From the IMG/VR virus record IMGVR_UViG_3300021387_001106, positions 1 to 64,000 of that record: DNA of 64,000 nt. One strand, written 5' to 3'. The notes under the pieces are model-generated. The model did not search any database and was not told the origin of the DNA. It worked only from the letters and a program-made list of their open reading frames with translations. Both the position numbers and the translations under genes were made by a program. Of the stretch, positions 48,252-64,000 are shown one piece after another (the stretch's first letter is position 1; every line of letters begins with the position of its first letter). The stretch comes from a virus. Its lineage: Duplodnaviria; Caudoviricetes.

Positions 48252-50684
48252 ATGGCGAAGAAGACGATAAAGATTACTGCGCAGAAAGGGCCGCAGTGGG
48301 ACTTCCTTGGAACGGAAGCTGATATATGCATATACGGCGGAGCAGCGGGCGGCGGAAAAGCAATGCCGCTCTCGGAACCGGTACTGACTACCCGTGGGTT
48401 CATTCCCATGGGTAGAGTTAGGATTGGGACAGAAGTCCGTACACCCGACAATGGTACAGCAAAGGTTATCCAGATACATCCTCAGGGTGTGGTGGATACC
48501 TACAGGATAAGGTTCTCGGACGGAGCCGAAACGGTTTGCACCGCTGACCATCTGTGGATGTCAAGGGTGTCTCGTGTCCCTGACAGCGACAAGGTACGAA
48601 CTACGGCGGAGATTAAGCGGCTCATAGATGTAGAGAGGAAGAACGTCTTCATACCACTTTGCTCACCGATAGAGTTCGACAGGGAAGTAGAACTCCCCAT
48701 AAAGCCGTATATGCTCGGTGTACTGATAGGGGACGGGTACCTGTGCAGGTATACGATTACCATTACCAAAGGCGATATGGAAGTGTTCGACCGTATCAGG
48801 GAGGACGGCTACAGCCTGACAAATTACTGTGGGAACCATCCCGAGCGTACACCTGAATATGGGGTGAAAGACTTCAAGGAAGAGAAGAAGTGGCTCACAG
48901 AGAAAAAGCTCAGGTGCAAAGGGTACAAGAAATATATCCCGAATGAATACAAATACGCGTCCATCCAAGACCGCATAGACCTGATACAGGGGCTTATGGA
49001 TACGGATGGTTACGCTGATAAACATGGCAACTGTTCCTTCTCAACCACGTCGAAGCGGCTGGCAAATGACGTGCAGTGGATAATCCGTTCACTGGGCGGC
49101 AGGGCCAAGATAACGAGCAAGATACCTTCCTATACACGCAAGGACGGCACAAAGAAGAAGTGCAGAAGAGCCTATATCGTACATGTTCGGATGCCTGACA
49201 ACTCCATACTGTTCAGCCTCCCGAGAAAGAAAAAGCGGTGTGAAGTCACCTATAAAAGAAAGCATCCACAGGGACAGGGCAGAAGGATTGCTTCGATACT
49301 TTGGGACGGGGAGAAGGAATGCCAGTGCATCACCCTTGACAACGAGCAGGGACTGTATCTGACAAGGGACTTCATCGTCACGCACAACAGCTATGGGCTA
49401 TTGCTCAGCCCGCTGATGTACAAGGGCGTGAGAGGGTTCAATGCTGTTGTCTTCAGAAGAACATTCAAGCAGATATTCTCACCCGGCAGCTTGTGGGATA
49501 TGGCGCATGAGATATATTCCCTCATTCCGAACGCTCAAATGCGAAAAGTTGCGGCATCTTGGGAGTTCGTTGATAAGGCGGGGGACGTCATATCGAAAGT
49601 AACATTTGCACATATAGAGAACTATAGCGCTGTTGACGACTGGAAGGGCAGCCAGTTATGCGAGATATGCTTCGATGAGGTGACTCATTTTGGTGAGGAC
49701 ACCTTCTTCTATATGTTGTCCCGTAACCGCTCTACGTGCGGCGTTAAGCCATTTGTAAGGGCAACCTGCAACCCTGACGCTGATTCATGGGTCGCCAAAT
49801 TCATAGAATGGTGGATAGATCAGGACACTGGATACCCTATACAGGAACGGAGTGGGAAGCTCCGATGGTTCGTCAGACGGGACGGTATTATCAACTGGGC
49901 CGATACAAAAGAAGAGCTGTGGGAAAGGTTCAATCTTCAGACACCCGAGGAACGGGATGAACCACGGTCAGTTACCTTCATAATGTCGAGTATCTACGAC
50001 AACAAGGAACTGCTGAAGGTCAACCCGCAGTACCTGTCTTCACTGAAAGCGCTCCCGGAGGTTGAACGTGAACGTCTGCTGAAAGGGAACTGGAAGATCA
50101 AGTCCACAGCCGGTACGTATTTTAAAAGAACACAGATTGAGCTTGTGCTTGATGAACCATCCGACATACAGCAGTATTGCAGGGCGTGGGACCTTGCCGC
50201 GTCATCGGACAAGGAGAGCGGAGACCCTGACTATACAGCCGGGGTTCTGGCTGGTCTTAGGAAGGATAAATCCGTTGTAATCCTTGACGTCATTAACAAA
50301 AGGGTACCGGCATCGGATGTTGAACGCCTGATATATAACACGGCTGTTGCTGACAGGAAAAAATACGGCCTCAAATGCAAGATACGGATACCGCAGGACC
50401 CGGGAGCAGCAGGGAAAATTGTTGCGCAGAACTATATAAAAATACTGTCTGGATTTCCAGTTAAGGCTATTCCCGTGTCAGGAAGCAAAGAACTGAGGGC
50501 AACGCCTGTTGCCGCCCAATGGCAGGTCGGAAATATATATGTTCTGGCGGCAGAATGGAACGATATGTATTTCACTCAGCTTGAAAGTTTTCCTCAGGGC
50601 GCACATGACGATATGGTGGACGCAACATCTGATGCTTTCAACGAACTATCGAAGCCGACATTTGAACTGAAGAACCTTTTGTAG
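48252..50684 (+). CDS. terL: Terminase large subunit containing an intein
   Basis: YGGAAGGGK/S Walker A, ICFDE Walker B, ATCNP, AWDLA, HDDMVDA. Confidence 0.95.
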   Translation: MAKKTIKITAQKGPQWDFLGTEADICIYGGAAGGGKAMPLSEPVLTTRGFIPMGRVRIGTEVRTPDNGTAKVIQIHPQGVVDTYRIRFSDGAETVCTADHLWMSRVSRVPDSDKVRTTAEIKRLIDVERKNVFIPLCSPIEFDREVELPIKPYMLGVLIGDGYLCRYTITITKGDMEVFDRIREDGYSLTNYCGNHPERTPEYGVKDFKEEKKWLTEKKLRCKGYKKYIPNEYKYASIQDRIDLIQGLMDTDGYADKHGNCSFSTTSKRLANDVQWIIRSLGGRAKITSKIPSYTRKDGTKKKCRRAYIVHVRMPDNSILFSLPRKKKRCEVTYKRKHPQGQGRRIASILWDGEKECQCITLDNEQGLYLTRDFIVTHNSYGLLLSPLMYKGVRGFNAVVFRRTFKQIFSPGSLWDMAHEIYSLIPNAQMRKVAASWEFVDKAGDVISKVTFAHIENYSAVDDWKGSQLCEICFDEVTHFGEDTFFYMLSRNRSTCGVKPFVRATCNPDADSWVAKFIEWWIDQDTGYPIQERSGKLRWFVRRDGIINWADTKEELWERFNLQTPEERDEPRSVTFIMSSIYDNKELLKVNPQYLSSLKALPEVERERLLKGNWKIKSTAGTYFKRTQIELVLDEPSDIQQYCRAWDLAASSDKESGDPDYTAGVLAGLRKDKSVVILDVINKRVPASDVERLIYNTAVADRKKYGLKCKIRIPQDPGAAGKIVAQNYIKILSGFPVKAIPVSGSKELRATPVAAQWQVGNIYVLAAEWNDMYFTQLESFPQGAHDDMVDATSDAFNELSKPTFELKNLL
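48360..49388 (+). mobile_element. Class 3 intein (Ala1) with LAGLIDADG homing endonuclease, 343 aa
   Basis: GGGK|AMPL...VTHN|S; block B CTADHLW, block F CQC, block G THN; LGVLIGDG and LIQGLMDTDG. Confidence 0.9.
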
Positions 50685-52092: not shown

Positions 52093-55000
52093 ATGGCAAG
52101 CAGGAAGGAAAAAATCGACTCGCTCAGGCGCTACACGAACTTAATACAGAAGCAGACCGGCAGAGTCGTAAGACCCTACCGCATGGACGGCTATGTCAAC
52201 ATGCTCACCAAGTACGGCACGTCCCGTGATGCTTCGGAAAGATATGAGTTTAAACAGGAACCACCGGTACCGGATGAACAGCTCACTTCCTTCTACGAGG
52301 GGAACGGACTGTTCGCCAAGATCATAGACGCACCGGCGGAAGAGGCCATCAAACACGGCTTTGAGCTGGAAGGGCTTCAGGACCAGAACATCGAGGACTT
52401 CTACACGGAAGCACTTGAAGAGCTGGACTGGGAAGAGACCATGATGACAGCAGTCAAATGGGCAAGGCTTTTTGGCGGTTCCATCGCTGTCATGATGATC
52501 AATGACGGCAGGGGTGTTGATGAGCCTCTCGACTGGAAGAACATCACATCTATCGACGACATCAGGATATATGACCGTTCCCTAATACAACCAGACTACG
52601 GAAGCATGTTCTCCTACGACCCGGACGACCCGTTCGGGACAAGGGGGAGCCGGTTGGGTATGCCTGAATACTACGATGTCTACAGCCGGTACGGGAGCTT
52701 CCGGGTGCACGACTCCAGATGCCTTGTATTCCAGAACGGTATACTCCCTGAGAACACGAGCAATTCTGTCTATCAGTTGTGGGGTATGCCGGAGTACATC
52801 AGGCTCAACAGGGCGATACGTGACGCTGAGGTCGCACACGGAACGGCTCCAAAGATGCTCGACCGCTCCATACAGGCGGTCTACCGGATGAAAGACCTTG
52901 CAACAGAACTTGCTACAGAGGAAGGCGAGGACAGGGTTCTCAGGCGTCTACAGACCATCGACATGGCAAGGGGGCTTTTAAACTCCATCACCATCGACAG
53001 CGAGGGCGAGGATTACGACTTCAGGCAATTTTCATTTACCGGCGTTTCCGAGGTCATCGACACGACATGCAACTTCCTGTCTGCATTGACTTCCATCCCA
53101 CAGACCATCCTGTTCGGAAGGTCACCCGCCGGTATGAACTCCACGGGCATGGGAGACCTTGAGAACTGGTACAACTACCTTGAACGCATCCAGAACCGCA
53201 TGATAAAGAAGAACCTGAGGTATCTTCTGAGCATCATCTTTCAGGCGGGCGTATGTACCGGTGAGATAGATGAGGTCCCACCTATCAAGGTCAAGTTCAA
53301 CCCGCTGTGGTCACTGTCCGATCAGGAAGAGGCGTCCCTTGAACAGATGAGGGCGCAGGTTGCGAACACCAATGCCAACACCGCTATGGTCTACGTCCAG
53401 ATGCAGGCGCTCGACCCTTCTGAGGTCAGAAAGAAACTTGCGGATTCCGAGGAGTTTGATGTTGAGACTCTGCTCGACGAATATACCGAGGAGGAACTGG
53501 AAGAAAACGACCCTATGAAGAAACAGGCGGAAGGTGCTATGCCGGGTATGGAAGGCGGCGGTATGCCGGGAATGCCGGGGATGCCTGCAATGCCCGGTGG
53601 ACCGGAAGGAGCACCGCCTGAAGGGGCACCGCCACAGGCACCGGATGCTATGGGCGGAACACCTACTGGAAAGGTTCAGCCTAATGACGGCCCTAAACCC
53701 GAAATGGCGCAGGGCGGCAAAGAAAAGGATACGGATATTGGCGGGAACGCCCCGGCTGCTGCACCGGCAGCAACAAAACTTCCTGTTGATATGAGCGGGA
53801 AGGAAAAGGACAAAGCAGAGGAAGCTAAGGAAGAGCTCAAGAAGCCTGTAGACAAGGCTAAAGACAACACTCAGGAATCGACAGCTAAGCCAGAAGAAAA
53901 GGCAGAAGATGCAGAGGACACTCTGCGCAATGCATGGCTTGGTGTCGGGCCTGAAGAAGAAAAGCCCTCTGATAAAAAGATTATCAAAAAGCCAAAAAAG
54001 CCCGTCGACCCGCTCCCGGGGGATACCCTTCGGAACGCGTGGCTGGGAATCACTCCAAAAGAAGAAGAGGATGAGGAGGACACGCTCACAAAAGCATGGC
54101 ATGGAACAGAACCGGTCGATACTGAGGATACGCTCAGGAACGCATGGCTCGGTAACATTCCCGTGAAACCGCCTCATGGCTCCAGGATCGTCCGTACACG
54201 CAAGGGGGATATTTCTATCAGGGACTTCCGTGCGGCGTCCAGAGAGGACGAAGAGAACCCTCTGACGGCAATGTACGACCATGAGATCACCGCCAGAAAT
54301 GGCAAGACCTACAGGGCGTTTGAGGGCGAAGGCTACAAAGCCTATGGCGAGAGGATGCGTGAAAGCTCCCGTATGGATGCGGGTGCGCAGGGTGCAGTCG
54401 GCGTGTATGTCATCAAGGATGGCAAGATACTGACAGGCATTCGTGGTGAAGGGGATGGACAATACCTTCTCTGCGGTCCCGGCGGACACATCGAAGAAGG
54501 TGAGACCCCCGGACAGGCTGCAATACGCGAGACACAGGAAGAGTTTGGTATCACACCCATGGAGCTTATCCCGTTCGGGAAAGGGGAAAAGCAAAGCAAC
54601 GGTCTACGGCCTGACCTGTTCCTATGTGTCAGGTTTGAGGGGAAACCCAAGTGCGATGAACACGAGATGCACAATCCGAGGTTCACAGCCATCGAAGAGA
54701 TCGAGCACTCGGGCCGCCTGTTCAGGCCGTTTGAAAACGGCATCCAGAAGCTGATACAGGCAGTTACTGGAAAGAACATCCACGCAGATGATGAAAAGTG
54801 GATTACTGTCAACGGAACACACGTACTTGTTGATGATGATGGAACCGCTAAAAACGGCGGCAAGCTCAAAGGAATGTCTTTTTCAAAAGCCGAGAGCGAG
54901 GAAAGCGCAAAGCAGACCAATGCTCCCGGCTCAAATAAAATACTCTTCCAACCGTCAAAGACTAAGATTAACAGGGAAATCTCTGATATAGCGGATAAGA

Positions 55001-56265
55001 GCACGCAGGATACGGTTGAAGATGACATTAAGAAGATTGGGAAGCTGCTTGACACACTTGAACCCGGCTCCGTAGTCACTGTCCCGGCAAATCTTGCGGG
55101 GGATGATAAGTACACCTATACAAAAGATGAAGATGGAAGATGGGGTGGAAAAGGCACCAACGGAACATGGAAAGCTGAGGACATCGCGTGGGATTTTCTC
55201 TATGAAGACCCGAGGGAACGCGCATATATCAGCAAGTCCGCATTATCGGAAACTGAGAAAGAAAAAGACAGACAGAGCTATGAGGCACGGAATTTCCGCA
55301 ATCAGGAATCCCCGTGGGCCGGTGACAACTCATTGGCTCAAATGGCTGAGGTACAGCTTCAGAGGGAAGACCTGAAGAAAGCCGGTGAAGGCACCGTAGC
55401 GGTCGATAAGGATGGAAGACAGCTCCAATGCCACGGAGATGGCGTATGGACAGACAGGGACGGAAACATCGTGAAGAATCCATCCGGGCTGAAAGTGGAA
55501 GGTGACTACTTCGATATAAACTGCGGATTGAACGGCATGGATCCTATCGAAATAAGCAAGGTCAGGGACGTGTTCGATAAAATGCCACCGGATATTCAGG
55601 GTATATACGAAAAAACCTTCAGGGAACATGGCGTAAGACCGTCTGAGGAAGGATGGGACATCTCATATTTCAAACCGTCAGATGGCCGTGTATATCTCCG
55701 CGAGGGGTCGTCAGCGGGCACCTTCTTCCACGAGATGAGCCATGCGCTTGACAGAGGGGCCGTAGACATAGAGTACGTAAAAGAAAACGGAGAGAAATAC
55801 AGGGTGACGTCTGCGGCGGAAAACCTTGACTGGCTTGCGCATCCGCTTAAAGAAAAGGGAAGAGAAGACTTCGAGACGATGGCAAAAATCGTCGGATTTA
55901 ATACTAACGGGAAGGGATGGTTCGCCAACGAGAAAGAAGAACAGGCGTCCGTCCGACAGTTCATCGACTGGGCATATAAGTATTCCGATATACCGGGATT
56001 TGAATGTGTCAGCGATGCAGTAAGCGCAATGACATATGACGTATGCGGGGCAAGCATATACTCTGGCGGTCATGACAGGCAGTATTGGACAGGCTCGTAC
56101 CTTCAGGGCAGAAAGACATCTGCAACGAGCGATGAATACTGGGCGAATTTCTGTGAACTTAAAGCGATGCGCTACGATACTGCTCTAAAACTCCTGAAAG
56201 TCATTACGCCGAACAGATATGCTGCGGCAGAGGCGACCTACAAAGAAGCCTTTAAGAAGAGGTAA
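52093..56265 (+). CDS. Portal protein (DUF1073-type) fused to a linker, Nudix hydrolase and HEXXH peptidase-like domain
   Basis: KIIDAPAEEA, WARLFGGS, IPQTILFGRSPAGMNSTG, FNPLW; Nudix box GGHIEEGETPGQAAIRETQEEFG (54481-54549); FFHEMSH (55729). Confidence 0.88.
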   Translation: MASRKEKIDSLRRYTNLIQKQTGRVVRPYRMDGYVNMLTKYGTSRDASERYEFKQEPPVPDEQLTSFYEGNGLFAKIIDAPAEEAIKHGFELEGLQDQNIEDFYTEALEELDWEETMMTAVKWARLFGGSIAVMMINDGRGVDEPLDWKNITSIDDIRIYDRSLIQPDYGSMFSYDPDDPFGTRGSRLGMPEYYDVYSRYGSFRVHDSRCLVFQNGILPENTSNSVYQLWGMPEYIRLNRAIRDAEVAHGTAPKMLDRSIQAVYRMKDLATELATEEGEDRVLRRLQTIDMARGLLNSITIDSEGEDYDFRQFSFTGVSEVIDTTCNFLSALTSIPQTILFGRSPAGMNSTGMGDLENWYNYLERIQNRMIKKNLRYLLSIIFQAGVCTGEIDEVPPIKVKFNPLWSLSDQEEASLEQMRAQVANTNANTAMVYVQMQALDPSEVRKKLADSEEFDVETLLDEYTEEELEENDPMKKQAEGAMPGMEGGGMPGMPGMPAMPGGPEGAPPEGAPPQAPDAMGGTPTGKVQPNDGPKPEMAQGGKEKDTDIGGNAPAAAPAATKLPVDMSGKEKDKAEEAKEELKKPVDKAKDNTQESTAKPEEKAEDAEDTLRNAWLGVGPEEEKPSDKKIIKKPKKPVDPLPGDTLRNAWLGITPKEEEDEEDTLTKAWHGTEPVDTEDTLRNAWLGNIPVKPPHGSRIVRTRKGDISIRDFRAASREDEENPLTAMYDHEITARNGKTYRAFEGEGYKAYGERMRESSRMDAGAQGAVGVYVIKDGKILTGIRGEGDGQYLLCGPGGHIEEGETPGQAAIRETQEEFGITPMELIPFGKGEKQSNGLRPDLFLCVRFEGKPKCDEHEMHNPRFTAIEEIEHSGRLFRPFENGIQKLIQAVTGKNIHADDEKWITVNGTHVLVDDDGTAKNGGKLKGMSFSKAESEESAKQTNAPGSNKILFQPSKTKINREISDIADKSTQDTVEDDIKKIGKLLDTLEPGSVVTVPANLAGDDKYTYTKDEDGRWGGKGTNGTWKAEDIAWDFLYEDPRERAYISKSALSETEKEKDRQSYEARNFRNQESPWAGDNSLAQMAEVQLQREDLKKAGEGTVAVDKDGRQLQCHGDGVWTDRDGNIVKNPSGLKVEGDYFDINCGLNGMDPIEISKVRDVFDKMPPDIQGIYEKTFREHGVRPSEEGWDISYFKPSDGRVYLREGSSAGTFFHEMSHALDRGAVDIEYVKENGEKYRVTSAAENLDWLAHPLKEKGREDFETMAKIVGFNTNGKGWFANEKEEQASVRQFIDWAYKYSDIPGFECVSDAVSAMTYDVCGASIYSGGHDRQYWTGSYLQGRKTSATSDEYWANFCELKAMRYDTALKLLKVITPNRYAAAEATYKEAFKKR
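53915..54155 (+). repeat. Four DTL(R/T)(N/K)AW(L/H)G peptide repeats in the portal linker
   Basis: DTLRNAWLG x3 and DTLTKAWHG. Confidence 0.8.
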
Positions 56266-56493: not shown

Positions 56494-56700
56494 ATGTATA
56501 TACCGCATTATGATACAAAGGCAGACAGGTTGCCATCGGACGCCACTGCTGAAGAAAAGGGAAGGTTCGAGCGCAGCCACAATGGCTATGGATGGATGCT
56601 TTTTTATAAGGAGCTTTATCCAGACCTGTCTGTCCCATATATGCGGTGGGATGGTAAGGTAATTGACAGCACATGGCTGTCCTTTTTTGATGCCGTCTAA
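56494..56700 (+). CDS. Small hypothetical protein
   Basis: AAGGA RBS. Confidence 0.6.
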   Translation: MYIPHYDTKADRLPSDATAEEKGRFERSHNGYGWMLFYKELYPDLSVPYMRWDGKVIDSTWLSFFDAV

Positions 56701-56719
56701 CCTGTTACAGGAGATGACT

Positions 56720-57883
56720 ATGGAACGGATACAGGCGATAAAACTGAAATCCATACAGATACGCTATCGACTCAGACAGAGGATGGACGGCGGCCCGGGT
56801 TCTGGCAACTGGGGGCACGAGGGGAGACCCGGCAAGATCGGCGGATCGGCGGAAGGCGGCGGCACACATAACCGACAAAAGAACAGGTTCGGCGGCTATA
56901 CCTCGTTCAGCAAATGGAGAAAAGAATCTGCGAGGAGCCACGCGCTTACGAGTCAGGACATAAAGGATGTCTACGACTTCGAAGACATTATCATTGTCGA
57001 CAAAGACGGAAACCGATACCAGAGGAGCGGGCACAACTTTGAGTGCAAAACGACCGGGGATAGAAGGGATTTCGCTATTGGGGATGAATGCCGGCTCATC
57101 ATCCCGAACAAGCTCAGTCCGAATTACAAGGTCACCCGCGATGATAAGAAGGCAATGGCCTTGAATCAGGAACGGTTTGAAAGAGCGTTCTACCCGGAGG
57201 AAAGAGGCGATGCCGATACCAGATACAGGTCTGAAGCCGGGGAAATATGGAATGGATGCAGCGAAAAAGAAAAAGATTCCATGTATAGATATACCTCGTC
57301 GGAGTATAGGAGGATAAACAAAAATGTTCGCGGCGGTAATACCGATGACGAGGAGTGCAACGAGACCATAGCAGCTATCACGGATGTGATAGACAGGTCC
57401 GAATTGAGACAGGATAGTGTCCTCAGGAGAGGAATATCGCTGGGAGCCGCTGAGAAACTGTTCGGGCTGCCAGAGGGGTATCTGGAGGCCGGCAATCATG
57501 CCGATGAAGGGAACATCTCCATGGTCGGCAGGGTCGGAACTGATGATGCGTTCATGAGCTGCGGTTCATCCCGAGATTCCGGGAATGACCGTCAGGTTGT
57601 TCTGGAGATTCTGGCTCCTGAGGGAACCAAGGCCATGTATTGTGAACCGTTTTCCGCGCACGGCTTGGGTGACAGAAAACTGTGGGACGGGAAAAGCGGA
57701 CAAGAATACTTTTCCTCTGAATGCGAGAGCCTTTTGCAAAGAGGAACCACTCTACAGGTCATCAGCCACGAGATGAAGGACTCGTTTGGGTTTACATACC
57801 ATACGATGAGAGCGGTTATTTTAAGGCAGGATACAGGAAGTTCTGAATACAGTCAAAAGATAAAAAAGGCAAAGTGGAATTGA
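56720..57883 (+). CDS. VIP2/C3-type ADP-ribosyltransferase with RMD-GGPGSGNWGH tag
   Basis: YT...Y..IN..R helix, LRRG (catalytic R), FMSCGS, ECESLLQRG (ExE). Confidence 0.85.
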   Translation: MERIQAIKLKSIQIRYRLRQRMDGGPGSGNWGHEGRPGKIGGSAEGGGTHNRQKNRFGGYTSFSKWRKESARSHALTSQDIKDVYDFEDIIIVDKDGNRYQRSGHNFECKTTGDRRDFAIGDECRLIIPNKLSPNYKVTRDDKKAMALNQERFERAFYPEERGDADTRYRSEAGEIWNGCSEKEKDSMYRYTSSEYRRINKNVRGGNTDDEECNETIAAITDVIDRSELRQDSVLRRGISLGAAEKLFGLPEGYLEAGNHADEGNISMVGRVGTDDAFMSCGSSRDSGNDRQVVLEILAPEGTKAMYCEPFSAHGLGDRKLWDGKSGQEYFSSECESLLQRGTTLQVISHEMKDSFGFTYHTMRAVILRQDTGSSEYSQKIKKAKWN

Positions 57884-57928: not shown

Positions 57929-59038
57929 ATGCCATCAATTCAGAATGACTTGAAAAGGATCCGCCTTTCCCTTAAAAAACGAAGAGAAGACGGATATACG
58001 GGAGAAAAAACATGCACAGGCGCATATAAAACGCATGGGAAAATTGACCGGGGGGCCGCAAGTGCTATAATAAAGTTGAAGGGGGGGAAGGTACGGGCAG
58101 ATAGCTGCCAAAAAGGACAAGCGGACGGCGGACCGGGAAGCGGAAACTGGGGACATGAAGGCAGGGACACAGGTGAACCCGGCGGTTCAAAGCCCGGTGG
58201 CGGAAAGAAAAACAGGACATACCGCAATAAAATAGGTTTCATTGCAACAATGAAGAAAGGAGACGCTAAACTTCTCGAACGGACAGACAGAAAGGTGGCT
58301 AAGATGAGGAAAAAGCTCCCCGGGCTCATGAAAGAAAGCCATGAAACATGGGAAAGCTGTGTAGCCGCCAGCAAAAGCGGGTCTTCAATCCCTTCCGGGT
58401 CTGAGGCAAGAAAAGACAGAGTTTTAAAAGGGCTTTCGCCGGGGGCACAGAAAAGGTATGACCGAGTTTTCGAAGCAGAACAAAGGATAACAAAAGACCT
58501 TATCGGCATTGCGTCCGACAGTGGAACTGAGATGTACGGCTTGGATTTTTCGCTGAAGAAGGGTTCCTCTGTGGTAGAGAAGGTCGCAAGGAAAAGAGCG
58601 GCGGATATTGCGCGTGAACTTAAACCTAAAACAGACGAAGAATATGTATCTCAACTCGGGGACCTTGTCAGGTACACACAACTTTGTGACCATAACAAGA
58701 TGGCAGACGTCGCAAAGGGCACGCTGTCTTCACTGAAGGCAAAAGGATATGACGTAGTCGAGGTAGACAACAAGTGGCAGGATGAGAAGTCCACATACAA
58801 AGGATTTCACATAATCGCAAAGGATAAGAACGGACAGCGGTTTGAACTCCAGATACATTCGAAAGAGAGTATGGATGTCAAGGAGCTTAACCATGTGCAA
58901 TATGAAGTTGCAAGGCAGCCAAAAGCCAGCGCTTATGTCAGGGATACGCTCGACCCACAAATGGCTGAAAGAACTGCAAAAATGAAGAAGCCAAAAGGGA
59001 TGAACGATCCCGCCTTGAAGTCGTGGAAAAATGAATGA
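57929..59038 (+). CDS. RelA/SpoT-type small alarmone synthetase (toxSAS/Apk2-like) with GGPGSGNWGH tag
   Basis: LKKGSSVVEK, DLVRYT, YKGFH, FELQIH. Confidence 0.82.
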   Translation: MPSIQNDLKRIRLSLKKRREDGYTGEKTCTGAYKTHGKIDRGAASAIIKLKGGKVRADSCQKGQADGGPGSGNWGHEGRDTGEPGGSKPGGGKKNRTYRNKIGFIATMKKGDAKLLERTDRKVAKMRKKLPGLMKESHETWESCVAASKSGSSIPSGSEARKDRVLKGLSPGAQKRYDRVFEAEQRITKDLIGIASDSGTEMYGLDFSLKKGSSVVEKVARKRAADIARELKPKTDEEYVSQLGDLVRYTQLCDHNKMADVAKGTLSSLKAKGYDVVEVDNKWQDEKSTYKGFHIIAKDKNGQRFELQIHSKESMDVKELNHVQYEVARQPKASAYVRDTLDPQMAERTAKMKKPKGMNDPALKSWKNE

Positions 59039-59590: not shown

Positions 59591-60433
59591 ATGACAGAAT
59601 ACAAGAGCTTTTTCAAAACTGTCGGGGGCAACGAGGGCAACAAGTGCCACTACCCGACAAGACTTGATAGCTACGGGTGTGGCTGCGCACATGACTGCAA
59701 ATACTGCTATGCAAGGTCGCTGCTGGAGTTTCGCGGGCTGTGGCGTCCCGAGGACCCGTCTGTTGCTGATATAGGCAAGATACGGCGTAAATTGGATAAA
59801 GTGGAACCGGGGACGATATTGAGGCTCGGCGGAATGACAGACTGTTTTCAGCCGATGGAACGCAAACTGGCCATCACATATCAGGTGGTCAGGGAACTGA
59901 ACAAGCGCCGTATCGGGTACCTGATCGTGACGAAATCCGCCATGGTTGCGGATGACCGGTACATCGGTGTCTATGACCCGGAACTTGCCCATATACAGGT
60001 GACCATTACGGCAACAGATGATGCCGTGGCGCTTGGATACGAGAAAGCGAGTCCAATTTCAGAGCGTATCAAAGCAGTCGAGAAGCTACAGATGAATGGT
60101 CTGGACGTGGCCGTAAGGCTTTCTCCATTCATACCTGAGTATGTAGATTTTGATGTTCTGAACAGCATCAAATGTGACAAGATACTTGTGGAGTTCCTCA
60201 GGTCAAATGCCTTTATCCGAAAGACATTCCCAATAGACTACTCGGAATACACGGTGAAGCAGAACGGATACTGGCACATGTCGCTCGACAGGAAGAAATA
60301 CTGGCTATCAAAGATAACGGGTTTCAACGAGCTGACGGTATGTGATGACGAGACAGAAGCATACGAATATTGGAAACAAAACGTCAACCCGAATCCTGAT
60401 GACTGCTGCAATCTTCGGAAGGTTGCAATCTGA
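59591..60433 (+). CDS. Radical SAM protein, spore-photoproduct-lyase-like
   Basis: RLDSYGCGCAHDCKYCYA, GGMTDCFQP, VTKS, RLSPFIP. Confidence 0.88.
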   Translation: MTEYKSFFKTVGGNEGNKCHYPTRLDSYGCGCAHDCKYCYARSLLEFRGLWRPEDPSVADIGKIRRKLDKVEPGTILRLGGMTDCFQPMERKLAITYQVVRELNKRRIGYLIVTKSAMVADDRYIGVYDPELAHIQVTITATDDAVALGYEKASPISERIKAVEKLQMNGLDVAVRLSPFIPEYVDFDVLNSIKCDKILVEFLRSNAFIRKTFPIDYSEYTVKQNGYWHMSLDRKKYWLSKITGFNELTVCDDETEAYEYWKQNVNPNPDDCCNLRKVAI

Positions 60434-60512
60434 AGGAAGAACTCAAAGAACATAGACGATGAACTATGGGACAGCAATGACTGTTCTTTTTTTTGCACAG
60501 AAGGAGGCGCGG

Positions 60513-63500
60513 ATGACCACGCTGGATTTCAATAAGGCGGTAATGGCATTTGTGTTCGCCTACCGTGCTGGAAATATCGAGAACGATTCTACACACATGG
60601 ACAACGCTTACGATGAATGGCTCGAAGAAAACCTCGATAAGTTTGAAGACGACGATTCAGAGGTGGCATTTGCCCAATGGAAGAACAGCGAGGGGGAAAA
60701 GCCAAGGGACTGTGATGACATCGACATGGTCGAGGCAATGTGGTTGGAATACAAAGGGCGGAGGAAAGACGGAAAAGACGATGAGGAAGGACGCTGGATT
60801 ACCACGGAAAACAAGCATAAGGTGCATATCAATGAAGAAGGCGTCGCTGACAAAGGGAATCCACATGTCCTTGCCGTGATGAACGAGGGGGAGAAAAGTG
60901 CGAGGAATAACAGCAGCCCTAAGGGGACGGCAAAGCACAAGATCGTTAATGGAAAAGATATTTCTGAATCTTACAGCGGTGAAGGAACCATAACGTCTGT
61001 CATACACGAACAGGGATTTGATGGGGTGCCTAAAGTCGTTTCGGATGATGAGTTTGATGAAGCTGTCAAAGCAAGCGGTTTTGTCGCTCAGAGGACATAT
61101 TCATCAGAGTCGCCTGAGGTTCTGGATGCATACCGGGAAGCACTTTACAGCGGGGAATGGTATGTGGAGTGTACTTATGGAAAGTCAGCATTTGGAAGGG
61201 GTATGTATACCGTATCCGATGCCTCGGGGACTATAACAGAGGCTGCGGAAGAAGAGGTTGCGAAATATCGAAAGTATGGCCAACATAGCTATACGGAAAC
61301 GATGACGCTTGCCCCGGGGGCCAAGATAGCAGATTACAGAAAAATTGCAGAAGATTGGGAAGATGGCTTTAATCACTACAATGACCTTGAGGAAATAAAA
61401 GCCTTAGAGAATAGGGCTCAGGAAGATATTGATAAAAAAATAAAAGGACTGGGCAAAAGAGGAAAAGAGTATCTTGATTGGGCAAAGCCTTTAGAAGAAG
61501 CCTTTTACAAAGAACAATTTAAGGTAAATTGGAAAGACGAAAAACAGATAGAAGAATACAACGGGCGGTATAAAAAATTTTACGAGGAAAAGAAAAGAAG
61601 GCTCAGCATGTTTGACCCGGATACTGCTCTTGCATTGGATAAGCCTCATAAGGCAGCTGAGAAAAGATTCAGGGAATTAGAAAAGGAGAAGTTCAAAAAA
61701 GGCATTGAGTTGCGTAAAAGATTCAAAGACATCAACGCTTATGCAGCGTCGTTGGGATACGATGCGGTCAACGTACCCCACGGAAAGGGGCTCTTTTACA
61801 CAATCATCCTGAACCGAACGAAGCTCATCATTAAAGATAAGCGAAATCGGAAAGATGATGAAGATGACAAGCACATCACCTTCCGCCCGGGAAAAGACGG
61901 ACAGATGTTGGCTGTAAAAGACGGAAAAGTGATTGGCTCGGTCTGGACAAACGATGTGCAGTCAGACGATATGCAACATGATTCCGATGAAAGCTCTGGT
62001 CCGGTGGAAAGCCTTGGGGACAAGCTCAGAAAATTTAGGATGATCCGCAGAAAATATAGGCACGATGCATCCTTTGGAGACGAACCTGTTGATGAACTTA
62101 TTGATGATTTCGGCCTTGGTGATGACGAAGAGTGGATAACAGTAAATGGCACGCATATACTCCTGAATCAAGAGGGCAAAGCGGTGAACGGCGGCGACCT
62201 TGCCGGGAAGGACTTCTCAAATGCGAAAAGCGAGCCGACCGTCGCACGCCGTCCTACACCGGAAGTCGGGAAGAGAAAGTCGACGGACTTCCTTCCACTG
62301 CATTCCTACAGGGATACAGAAACGTTTAAGGACGCAGTGGCCTCTTATAAAGAAGCAAGTGAAAAAGCCGATGAGCTGTGGGCAAAAAGAAAAGAACTTG
62401 AAGAAGCTGTCAAAAGCGAGAGCCGACCGAAACCGAAAGATGAATGGGATGAGGAAGATGAGTACCAGTCACTGATAGGGAAAAGGCCGAGGATATACAC
62501 CGAAAAAGGAAAGAAACTCCAAGACGAGTTATCAAAAGTCGAGAAGGAGTGGTTTAAACAGAAAAAAGCCAATGACGAAGCATCTGAAAAGCTCGATGCC
62601 ATGAAAGAGCAGGAACATCAGCGTCAGGCTGCCGCCTATAAGCCGAACAAGTTCAAGGAAGCTAAAAAGGATGACTATGAAGGGTTCACGCTCGACAAGA
62701 CCAGCAATTCATTTGGTGATGAGTACCTTCAGAACGGCAAGGGCAGGATCGTAGAGATGTCACCGAGGGAGTACCTTGAACGGTGTGCTTACGAGATATT
62801 CCACAACGGCACAATGGAAAGCACCATGGGGGCTGTTGACGAAAAGACAACGGACAAATACGCGGAGCAAATGAAGAACGGCGAGAAGTTCGACCTTCCA
62901 TACCTGAACTACAAGGACATGGGACAGGAGGGAAGGCACAGGGCTGTAGCTGCATACAAAGCCGGTATCGAAACAATGCCGGTGCTCATTATCGGGGACC
63001 CGAAACACAGGAAAGATTCCAAACGACATGAGCGTATGGATGAAGAACCAGAAGAATGGATTACCGTGAACGGTAACCACATACCGCTTGATGGCGATAA
63101 GAAGCCTATCGGCGGACAGATGAAAGCGCTTGGGAAAGCAGCTCCAAAAGCAAAAGCCCGTCCTGCACACGGGGTGGTATCCAAAAAGACGTCACTCACT
63201 CCTGCTCAAAGGAAGCATTATTCGGACGAGCTCGAACGGATAACAGAAGCTTTCCAGAAGGAGAGGGATTTCCAGAAGAGTGTTAATCCAAAAGTGAAGG
63301 ACTACGACCCGACCCCGTTTATTGAAAGCGAAAAGCGAGCAAAAGAACTCCGTGCGGAGGGGGAACGCCTCTGTGGGGAAATGCCGGCGGGGACAATTAT
63401 CACTAAGGGCACCGAACTGTATGAGAAGACAGATGACGGAAAATGGACAATGACCAAACCGGGAATCAGAAGGACGATCGAAAATTCGAGTGCGGCTGAT

Positions 63501-64000
63501 TTCATAGGCGGCTATACAGATAACTCTTCCAATTACGGGCCAAAGCTCGTGGAGAGCACGGATGAGGCAGAACAGCTTGAAGACATCTCCATGCACGACA
63601 ACAGCACGTATGGGGACTGGGCTGCTGACCTCAACGGAAAGGCTCGTAAAGACCTTGTCAAGCGAGCAAAGAAAGACCCTGAGTTCAAGGAGCTGGTCGA
63701 TTCCATAGTCCTTTATACAGAAGGTGGATATGTCGACCAAAGGAAAGCACTCGAAGCGGCAACGGAGACCGGACTGAAAGATGTCGATGCTCAGACAGTA
63801 GGAATGTACGCAAACGATACCATCTACAAAATACGGGATCTGTGGAAAGGACAGGACCTGACAGGCAGTCAGGCATCACTTGCGGGGGGCATGGCGCACC
63901 TCACGGGTGTCATCAATGCCGCAGACCCGGTTGAGAAGCCGCTGTTCCGCGCTGCTCAGGATAGGAGCATCGCAAAGACCGGGGAACAAGAACCATATGT
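60513..64000 (+). CDS. Large multidomain head-associated effector polyprotein (>1160 aa, runs off window; not in ORF track)
   Basis: AGGAGG RBS, MTTLDFNK start; frame open at all spots checked; three WIT..N/H tags; ART-like (RTY..FGRGMY..GYDAV), ParB-like (MSP.EY..QEGRHRA), start of second ART-like domain (LYT.GGY..LFR). Confidence 0.85.
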   Translation, partial: MTTLDFNKAVMAFVFAYRAGNIENDSTHMDNAYDEWLEENLDKFEDDDSEVAFAQWKNSEGEKPRDCDDIDMVEAMWLEYKGRRKDGKDDEEGRWITTENKHKVHINEEGVADKGNPHVLAVMNEGEKSARNNSSPKGTAKHKIVNGKDISESYSGEGTITSVIHEQGFDGVPKVVSDDEFDEAVKASGFVAQRTYSSESPEVLDAYREALYSGEWYVECTYGKSAFGRGMYTVSDASGTITEAAEEEVAKYRKYGQHSYTETMTLAPGAKIADYRKIAEDWEDGFNHYNDLEEIKALENRAQEDIDKKIKGLGKRGKEYLDWAKPLEEAFYKEQFKVNWKDEKQIEEYNGRYKKFYEEKKRRLSMFDPDTALALDKPHKAAEKRFRELEKEKFKKGIELRKRFKDINAYAASLGYDAVNVPHGKGLFYTIILNRTKLIIKDKRNRKDDEDDKHITFRPGKDGQMLAVKDGKVIGSVWTNDVQSDDMQHDSDESSGPVESLGDKLRKFRMIRRKYRHDASFGDEPVDELIDDFGLGDDEEWITVNGTHILLNQEGKAVNGGDLAGKDFSNAKSEPTVARRPTPEVGKRKSTDFLPLHSYRDTETFKDAVASYKEASEKADELWAKRKELEEAVKSESRPKPKDEWDEEDEYQSLIGKRPRIYTEKGKKLQDELSKVEKEWFKQKKANDEASEKLDAMKEQEHQRQAAAYKPNKFKEAKKDDYEGFTLDKTSNSFGDEYLQNGKGRIVEMSPREYLERCAYEIFHNGTMESTMGAVDEKTTDKYAEQMKNGEKFDLPYLNYKDMGQEGRHRAVAAYKAGIETMPVLIIGDPKHRKDSKRHERMDEEPEEWITVNGNHIPLDGDKKPIGGQMKALGKAAPKAKARPAHGVVSKKTSLTPAQRKHYSDELERITEAFQKERDFQKSVNPKVKDYDPTPFIESEKRAKELRAEGERLCGEMPAGTIITKGTELYEKTDDGKWTMTKPGIRRTIENSSAADFIGGYTDNSSNYGPKLVESTDEAEQLEDISMHDNSTYGDWAADLNGKARKDLVKRAKKDPEFKELVDSIVLYTEGGYVDQRKALEAATETGLKDVDAQTVGMYANDTIYKIRDLWKGQDLTGSQASLAGGMAHLTGVINAADPVEKPLFRAAQDRSIAKTGEQEPY

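Follow-up and report, generated by a model that had tools for sequence, protein, structure and literature searches.

The first 64,000 nucleotides (nt) of the virus record IMGVR_UViG_3300021387_001106 (Duplodnaviria; Caudoviricetes) form the window analysed here, which belongs to a genome of 98,632 bp in one contig. The DNA of the window is about 50% G+C with a strong bias towards the + strand, and the genome is probably that of a phage of about 100 kb infecting gut hosts of the Oscillospiraceae/Faecalibacterium type. The subject of this study is an open reading frame (ORF) of 1390 amino acids (aa), P0001, in which a phage portal is continued by a Nudix hydrolase domain and ends in a domain that we read as a zinc metallopeptidase (zincin). 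The gene lies in the head module, 1.4 kb past the gene for the large terminase and upstream of those for MuF, a head-maturation protease (at 75.8 kb; phrog_530, E 1e-80) and the major head protein (at 77.9 kb; phrog_264, E 8e-78). The coordinates of all features are collected in Table 1.

The portal-Nudix part and its relatives

The portal family Phage_portal_3 (PF06381) of Pfam matches aa 63 to 425 of P0001 (E 2e-72), above its curated cut-off (244 bits against 33.8) and over profile positions 2 to 356 of 357. PHROG portal profiles span aa 18 to 481 and PHROG Nudix profiles aa 753 to 873, and a sequence search of the PDB matched the N-terminal part to the solved portal chains 9jlf (E 4e-25) and 9l01 (E 7e-24). 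A word-indexed search of 5.8 billion proteins with the ORF gave 2287 matches; all of the top 120 have the portal domain and 119 of them also a precomputed Nudix domain, and they come from many independent assemblies. One protein from other contigs, P0002 (1454 aa), aligns with P0001 from the first to the last residue with 66% identity; the C-terminal module is 52% identical between the two, the portal and Nudix parts being visibly much better kept. Two further portals, P0009 and P0019, end in the same module, and portal-Nudix fusions are present in the complete genomes of the isolates FP_Brigit and Bcep781/Bcep43/BcepNY3. The three-domain ORF is a genuine fusion and not an assembly artefact, because an independent homologue is collinear with it and isolate genomes carry portal-Nudix fusions.

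An earlier note on this DNA, made from its letters, had described the 1390-aa portal-Nudix-HEXXH ORF as about 480 aa of portal followed by a Pro/Gly/Lys linker, a complete Nudix box and a C-terminal HEMSH...E domain, and had named an assembly artefact as one thing that would refute its reading. Its layout was borne out. The frame is open and the Pfam and PHROG domains and the HEMSH motif are in place; the linker is rich in P, G, E, A and K (aa 481 to 740), the Nudix box is intact, the later Glu is E1348, which is invariant in homologues, and the fusion is upheld by P0002 and the isolate genomes.

The NUDIX family of Pfam (PF00293) matches aa 767 to 870 (E 9e-13; 48.8 bits against a cut-off of 21.1). 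The Nudix box (aa 798 to 820, nt 54484-54552) reads GHIEEGETPGQAAIRETQEEFGI and follows the pattern G-x5-E-x7-RE-x-x-EE-x-G, with a Thr at the hydrophobic U position after RE as its sole deviation, a deviation that FP_Brigit has likewise. The nearest phage matches of the domain in tblastn searches were the FP_Brigit portal, T4-like nudE genes and the Bcep781-type portal; the nudE genes (33-37% identity) were among the best stand-alone matches, with weak E values of 1e-4 to 1e-5. The commonest fusion partner of the Nudix domain in this family is an ADP-ribosyltransferase (ART). The nudE neighbours and this frequent partner suggest ADP-ribose/NAD-type or dinucleotide substrates, in line with the argument of Iyer et al. 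2022 (PMC9503650). Sequence alone cannot settle the substrate; our best guess is that the domain hydrolyses nucleoside diphosphate-X (NDP-X) compounds, the likeliest being molecules derived from ADP-ribose or NAD and dinucleotide polyphosphates. The Pro that lies about 15-16 residues past the box in ADP-ribose pyrophosphatases was not seen there by eye (Q834/S835), too weak a sign to be used.

The third slot, after the portal and Nudix domains, varies between relatives. It holds an ART, a zeta-toxin kinase (P0017), a phosphoribosyltransferase (P0013, P0005) or unannotated domains, and in P0001 the HEXXH module. The form with an ART (PF03496) is represented by very numerous proteins of 1026 aa, such as P0050, where the ART occupies aa 823 to 981. 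A split relative was found at locus L008, in a metagenome-assembled genome of an uncultured Oscillospiraceae bacterium, where the large terminase gene is followed by one for a 1187-aa protein with portal, Nudix and two further modules. Next comes a free protein of 552 aa that is homologous to the zincin module (35% identity), and after it MuF, DUF2213 and the major capsid protein. The module occupies one and the same position among the head genes in both, fused in P0001 and split in L008, and therefore has a functional tie to the portal and head that does not need a covalent link.

The zincin module

The HEMSH motif (aa 1213-1217) is part of the sequence HEMSHALD. In alignments of 37 and of 39 homologues, H1213, E1214, H1217, D1308, H1327, E1348 and P1373 are invariant, and D1220, Y1331, W1332 and A1351 nearly so. 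The HEXXH motif and E1348 both fall in predicted helices, in what appears to be a gluzincin-type arrangement, and H1213, H1217 and E1348 are the putative zinc ligands.

Domain parsing with AlphaFold, as the earlier note had proposed, was carried out with alignments of homologues and gave confident models of the whole module (meba56a981da9, aa 901 to 1390; predicted local distance difference test, pLDDT, 91.8) and of its catalytic domain (m674ef40505fa, aa 1136 to 1390; pLDDT 94.9). In the module model, an N-terminal peptide of two hairpins is followed by a disordered stretch, an alpha/beta domain, a small SH3/Tudor-like barrel and the catalytic domain. The two accessory domains have weak fold matches only (Z 3.5-4.3), and in the model they look like substrate-recognition parts. 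A papain-like reading of the alpha/beta domain, to which matches with GtgE, USP14 and Josephin (Z 3.5-4.3) could point, was rejected, as there are no conserved Cys or His residues there.

The fold of the catalytic domain was searched for exhaustively with VIA-align. The first seven ranks were all taken by chains of the anthrax-toxin family: the catalytic domain of anthrax lethal factor (LF) (1yqy, Z 8.4, 166 residues at 3.8 A), PPEP-2 (6fpc, Z 6.9, 143 residues at 3.6 A, 18% identity), the LF-like N-domain of Certhrax (4fxq, Z 6.5, 159 residues at 4.8 A), PPEP-3 (9g0j, Z 6.0, 152 residues at 3.9 A), the LF-like N-domain of edema factor (1xfv, Z 5.6, 162 residues at 5.1 A) and the N-domain of LF (6psn and 3kwv, Z 5.4 and 5.3, 143 and 141 residues). 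Most of the other matches listed were zincins (M1, thermolysin, M3, ArdC, botulinum neurotoxin [BoNT]); generic zincins scored Z 4.5 or less and one unrelated chain Z 5.1. The order of the top five was unchanged when the model of the whole module was used. We read the catalytic domain as a zincin endopeptidase that has its closest relatives of solved structure in the LF/PPEP group, because the fold matches cohere with a motif pattern of the form HExxH-x-x-D ... E-Y-W-A; membership of the LF/PPEP family is not established by sequence. What the earlier note had called HEXXH peptidase-like can thus be sharpened to an LF/PPEP-like zincin module, which is also found as a gene of its own. A role as a peptidoglycan peptidase is not favoured, the fold matches being protein endopeptidases.

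The module has no Pfam family. A Pfam search of the C-terminal 511 aa at E<=10 gave a chance match to YebC only, and tblastn of the zincin domain found no match in 50,697 GenBank phage records, so that the family is absent from both. Neither the query nor any of the 37 homologues matched Pfam ATLF at E<=1, and four of the 37 matched Tox-MPTase4 weakly (best E 0.0015). Sequence and profile searches of the PDB with the module returned nothing meaningful (UVSSA, E 0.02-0.3; LF, E 0.7), and the matches in the ESM Atlas were all to unnamed clusters. An exhaustive HMMER search of 1.84 billion cluster representatives identified 103 proteins at E<=1e-3, 25 of them at E<=1e-30. They include free proteins of about 510-546 aa (P0121-P0124), portals with a Nudix domain (P0002, P0009) or without it (P0019) and a protein in which the module follows an ART (P0134); among the 37 homologues, distant ones carry the head domains Phage_Mu_F (6/37) or Phage_min_cap2 (2/37). 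In the 27 strongest matches that cover the zincin, the match stops at most 7 residues from the C terminus of the protein. A scan of IMG/VR with the module returned three matches, all to the tag alone, and a scan of GTDB genomes returned the single locus L008. This distribution suggests that the module is a portable, head-associated cargo unit.

Linker, tags and neighbouring genes

The linker between portal and Nudix ends with two candidate junction sites, SRED (aa 715-718) and SRMD (aa 761-764). Most members of the family have an Asp 6-8 residues ahead of the first Nudix strand, which in P0001 appears as SRMD-A. Upstream of these sites the linker contains four copies of a short peptide of the DTLRNAW type. 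The linkers of nine related portals, some without zincin, have 3-8 copies, and the repeat is absent elsewhere in the 98.6-kb genome. Synonymous codons vary between the copies, and therefore it is the peptide and not the DNA that is conserved. Cut sites, motifs in contact with capsid or DNA, and spacers are the candidate roles. A further short element of the linker, NAPAAAPAATKLPVDMSGKE (aa ~553-567, window 53750-53790), is conserved just past the portal crown; its counterpart is kept in L008 and, as TKLPQDMS, in the far-removed family of 1026-aa portal-Nudix-ART proteins.

Between Nudix and zincin module lies a junction followed by a tag of about 35 aa with the form W-[IV]-T-[IV]-N-G-T-H-[VI]...GGKLKG.FS.AKS. 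The genome has eight of these WITVNG tags, all between 54.8 and 73.2 kb. The proteins retrieved in our searches contain 69 distinct instances, near the N termini of otherwise unrelated proteins or between the domains of giant ones, and an acidic run precedes the tags. The triplet [RKH]-x-D occurs within 14 residues upstream in 77% of cases, against 14% for random positions of the same proteins and 39% for composition-matched shuffles. The 43-aa tag had no tblastn match in the 50,697 GenBank phage records, no Pfam family corresponds to it, and its literal motif strings were not found in a library of papers. The WITVNG peptide has the appearance of a portable tag that marks an address or a junction.

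A second tag, D-GGPGSGN[WFH]GH.GRPG..GGS, precedes three unrelated domains in the window, in ORF 51100 (unassigned), the ART gene and a gene resembling small alarmone synthetases (SAS). In L008 it is found on the portal gene, and the free zincin gene has it in place of the WITVNG tag; the same cargo can therefore bear either tag, and the two appear interchangeable.

About 15 kb of tagged enzyme genes lie between the portal (52.1 kb) and MuF (71.7 kb). They begin with the ART and SAS-like genes. The C-terminal half of the SAS-like protein matches 8vx3, and Pfam RelA_SpoT matches it under the cut-off (E 0.0014); it would be a probable virion-delivered (p)ppNpp synthetase. Two larger multi-domain proteins follow, of 1767 and 1038 aa. 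The C terminus of the latter matches the non-portal C-terminal part of the FP_Brigit-type profile phrog_15528 (positions 676-777). Among the cargo genes there is also an ORF of 280 aa (window 59591-60433) with a CxxxCxxC motif (CAHDCKYC) typical of radical-SAM enzymes, whose PHROG matches are all to families of unknown function. Upstream of the portal, the large terminase is unusually long, with terminase profiles that split near aa 380; its N-terminal ~280 aa also match P-loop profiles of DnaC-like loaders and primases, and an extra domain or an insertion is possible.

Table 1. Features of P0001 and of the genes around it (window positions unless marked as genome)
Feature	Residues (aa)	Position	Strand	Evidence or remark
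Whole ORF P0001 (portal, linker, Nudix, tag, accessory domains, zincin)	1-1390	52093..56265	+	Uninterrupted frame; collinear homologue P0002
Portal domain	1-480	52093..53532	+	PF06381; phrog_15528/146; PDB portal chains 9jlf/9l01
Low-complexity P/G/E/A/K linker, candidate junctions at its end	481-764	53533..54384	+	Composition
Four peptide repeats, [E/G]DTL[R/T][N/K]AW[L/H]G	609, 644, 663, 679	53911..54153 (starts 53917, 54022, 54079, 54127)	+	In the linker
Nudix hydrolase domain	765-898	54385..54786	+	PF00293, E 9e-13
Junction and ~35-aa tag, IHAD-DEK-WITVNGTHVLVDDDGTAKNGGKLKGMSFSKAES	~897-940	54787..54912	+	Two beta-hairpins, then disordered stretch (model)
Accessory sub-domains: alpha/beta; SH3/Tudor-like barrel	~954-1050; ~1085-1140	54952..55512	+	AlphaFold2 model
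Predicted zincin metallopeptidase domain	1136-1390	55498..56262	+	Conserved columns; model m674ef40505fa
Large terminase	810 in all	48252..50684	+	phrog_979, E 6e-145
ART gene, N-terminal GGPGSGNWGHEGRPG tag		56663..57883	+	PF03496, E 3e-16; ~400 nt past the portal ORF
SAS-like gene, GGPGSGNWGH tag		57929..59038	+	PDB 8vx3 (SaSAS), E 1e-8
Multi-domain cargo protein, three WITVNG-type tags	1767 in all	60459..64000, to 65762 in genome	+	
Giant multi-domain protein with WITVNG tag	1038 in all	Genome 65710-68826		
WITVNG tags		54799, 60795, 62133, 63057; genome 65857, 69156, 70161, 73224		
Second tag		51190, 56798, 58136		Also in L008 portal and zincin genes

Proposed delivery in the virion and comparison with known systems

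The domain identities, the intact catalytic motifs, the recurrent fusion, the modular third slot and the split relative are all observed. We propose, with a probability of about 0.65, that P0001 is a polyvalent portal that carries a Nudix and a zincin enzyme as packaged cargo, and that these are cut free at [R/H]-x-D junctions, ejected with the DNA and active early in infection. The N-terminal 480 aa would build the dodecameric portal ring. The C terminus (crown) of a portal faces the interior of the capsid, and because of this the 900-aa extension would put Nudix and zincin into the head in up to twelve copies each. The cargo would be cut from the ring at the junctions, most plausibly by the head-maturation protease of the phage itself, would leave with the DNA and would act in the first moments of infection. 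There the T4 NudE-like Nudix may hydrolyse NDP-X compounds. The second enzyme, a self-contained cargo module made of the tag, two small accessory domains and the LF/PPEP-like zinc endopeptidase, may cleave a specific protein, probably of the host.

Several results weigh against the enzyme assignments in this proposal. The Nudix is tentatively placed in the NudE clade by tblastn matches that are weak (E 1e-4 to 1e-5), and its best PDB sequence matches are chains of the MutT/MTH1 type (best E 5e-7) and not ADP-ribose pyrophosphatases. For the zincin, the fold scores of Z 6-8.4 are moderate, Foldseek searches of the PDB with both models gave no match at E<=0.001, and sequence searches of Pfam and the PDB failed to connect the domain with M34, the MEROPS family of LF and PPEP; VIA-align was the one method to give a coherent family.

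The earlier note had seen in the portal-fused Nudix a candidate for destroying defence signals or alarmones at injection. Delivery of such an enzyme, with nucleotide signals as its putative targets, would fit the evidence and matches a published inference (PMC9503650). The neighbours that the note invoked are real, as the matches of the ART and SAS-like proteins indicate. Its suggestion that the Nudix balances a toxSAS of the phage itself is argued against by the constancy of the Nudix beside varying partners (ART, zeta toxin, phosphoribosyltransferase and zincin).

The alternative that survives best, although we consider it unlikely, is that the zincin is a processing enzyme. It would release the Nudix and other domains by cutting the polyprotein to which it belongs, or further tagged cargo, either inside the head or once injected. 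Such a role is favoured by Iyer et al. 2017 for many metallopeptidases of polyvalent proteins, in which zincins are the commonest hub domain and autoprocessing has been proposed for P1 DdrB and the N4 virion RNA polymerase (PMC5512222). The near-constant position of the module at the extreme C terminus would suit it, and the repeated, conserved linker peptides are possible cut sites. The free module (P0121-P0124 and L008), however, has nothing fused to it to process in cis, the phage encodes a dedicated head-maturation protease, and the two extra domains look like substrate-recognition parts. Some portals have DTLRNAW repeats and no zincin, and WITVNG tags occur, in a single case, in a virus genome judged 100% complete by CheckV (G001) that has no such zincin. 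An effector is preferred over a processor because the zincin exists as a free protein, tags and repeats occur without it, it has accessory domains of its own and it diverges faster than its carrier. Its faster divergence relative to portal and Nudix is as expected of an effector in an arms race.

Less probable still is that the enzymes are active within the cell that produces the phage, or remain attached to the portal, without ever being injected. The fusion would then serve only to co-express late enzymes with head proteins, or to condition the inside of the capsid or the nucleotide pool while DNA is packaged. The portal is a late protein, so that fused enzymes would be in the cytoplasm before assembly, and the portal itself remains in the capsid. 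Against this stand the partner domains of relatives (ART and zeta toxin), which would be self-harming late in infection, and the occurrence of the same modules on MuF-type carriers together with address-like tags in head clusters, a classic signature of packaged and ejected proteins. That the long ORF is an assembly or frameshift artefact joining separate portal, Nudix and peptidase genes is scarcely credible: in L008 the zincin is indeed a separate gene, overlapping the end of the portal gene by 20 nt, and split and fused states both exist, but the independent collinear 1454-aa homologue, the other portals ending in the module, the many independently assembled portal-Nudix proteins and the complete isolate genomes speak for the fusion.

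The polyvalent portal may be one instance of a wider cargo grammar, an idea that we put forward tentatively and against somewhat unfavourable odds. Either of two address peptides would mark enzyme modules, each following an [R/H]-x-D junction cut by the head protease; loading would be as free tagged proteins or by fusion to the portal, and the LF-like protease would be an injected effector that cleaves a specific host protein at the start of infection. Its target would then be, for example, a defence or transcription factor.

Enzymes packaged in the head meet the host before the phage is transcribed, and because they are the first phage proteins to do so they are prime candidates for counter-defence. 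P0001 offers a clean example, with one structural anchor, one constant enzyme (the Nudix) and one exchangeable slot. It also defines a formerly unannotated metalloprotease module, with a predicted LF-like fold and with fused and free forms, and it makes available defined constructs for questions about the substrates of virion-delivered Nudix and protease enzymes in phages of gut Clostridia.

The motif of an HExxH followed by an Asp and by a later Glu in the context E-[FY]-[FW]-A is presumably shared by LF/PPEP and the P0001 zincin. The two differ in an insert of about 130 residues between HExxH and the Glu helix and in the additional conserved residues D1308, H1327 and Y1331/W1332, all in P0001, and in their setting, which for the zincin of P0001 is a phage head and not a secreted toxin.

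Among portals, the FP_Brigit protein (AUV56649.1, 828 aa) resembles P0001: its gene comes immediately after that of the large terminase, and its portal domain is continued by a C-terminal Nudix domain. It is 54% identical to P0001 over the aligned parts of aa 13 to 892; a different small C-terminal domain stands in place of the zincin module. The gp17 proteins of Bcep781/Bcep43/BcepNY3 (695 aa) are also portal-Nudix proteins encoded after the large terminase, and, unlike P0001, end after the Nudix. DTLRNAW repeats, WITVNG tag and zincin module are all present in P0001, whereas FP_Brigit and Bcep781-type portals lack them.

With its portal, Nudix and zincin in one ORF and its place in the head module of a terminase-portal phage, P0001 falls within the polyvalent proteins as defined by Iyer et al. 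2017, whose commonest domains are zincin metallopeptidases (PMC5512222). That study described a phage-type zincin with an Asp three residues past HEXXH, which the HEMSHALD of P0001 fits, and used HHpred to link the zincin in the N4 virion RNA polymerase region with LF. The invariant columns of the P0001 family do not include the conserved His that its authors, who distinguish 12 clades, place ahead of HEXXH where strand 2 ends. Linkers, inter-domain tags and repeat peptides are not mentioned in the same paper, according to word searches of its text.

Domains of T4-like NudE fused to MuF, portal and capsid protease have been described as probably packaged and injected (Iyer et al. 2022, PMC9503650, section 3.5.2). 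T4 NudE (gene e.1) is a free protein, whereas the Nudix of P0001 is fused to a portal and its match is weak (E 1e-4 to 1e-5); as cited in PMC9503650, Xu et al. 2002 gave ADP-ribose, FAD and Ap3A as substrates of T4 NudE. T4 Alt and the T4 internal proteins provide a working analogy of enzymes that are loaded in the prohead, trimmed by the head protease and ejected with the DNA, and P0001 itself adjoins an ART gene. Its loading would be by covalent portal fusion, by tags that are unrelated to the capsid-targeting sequence of T4, or by both, and there is no homology with the T4 proteins.

Zincin metallopeptidase, ART and Nudix all belong to the described repertoire of polyvalent and effector domains (PMC5512222, PMC9503650). 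The core of the finding has thus already been described computationally in these papers and is less novel than the earlier note implied; what is added here is the three-part architecture, a well-modelled zincin family, its fused and split states, and the repeats and tags at the boundaries.

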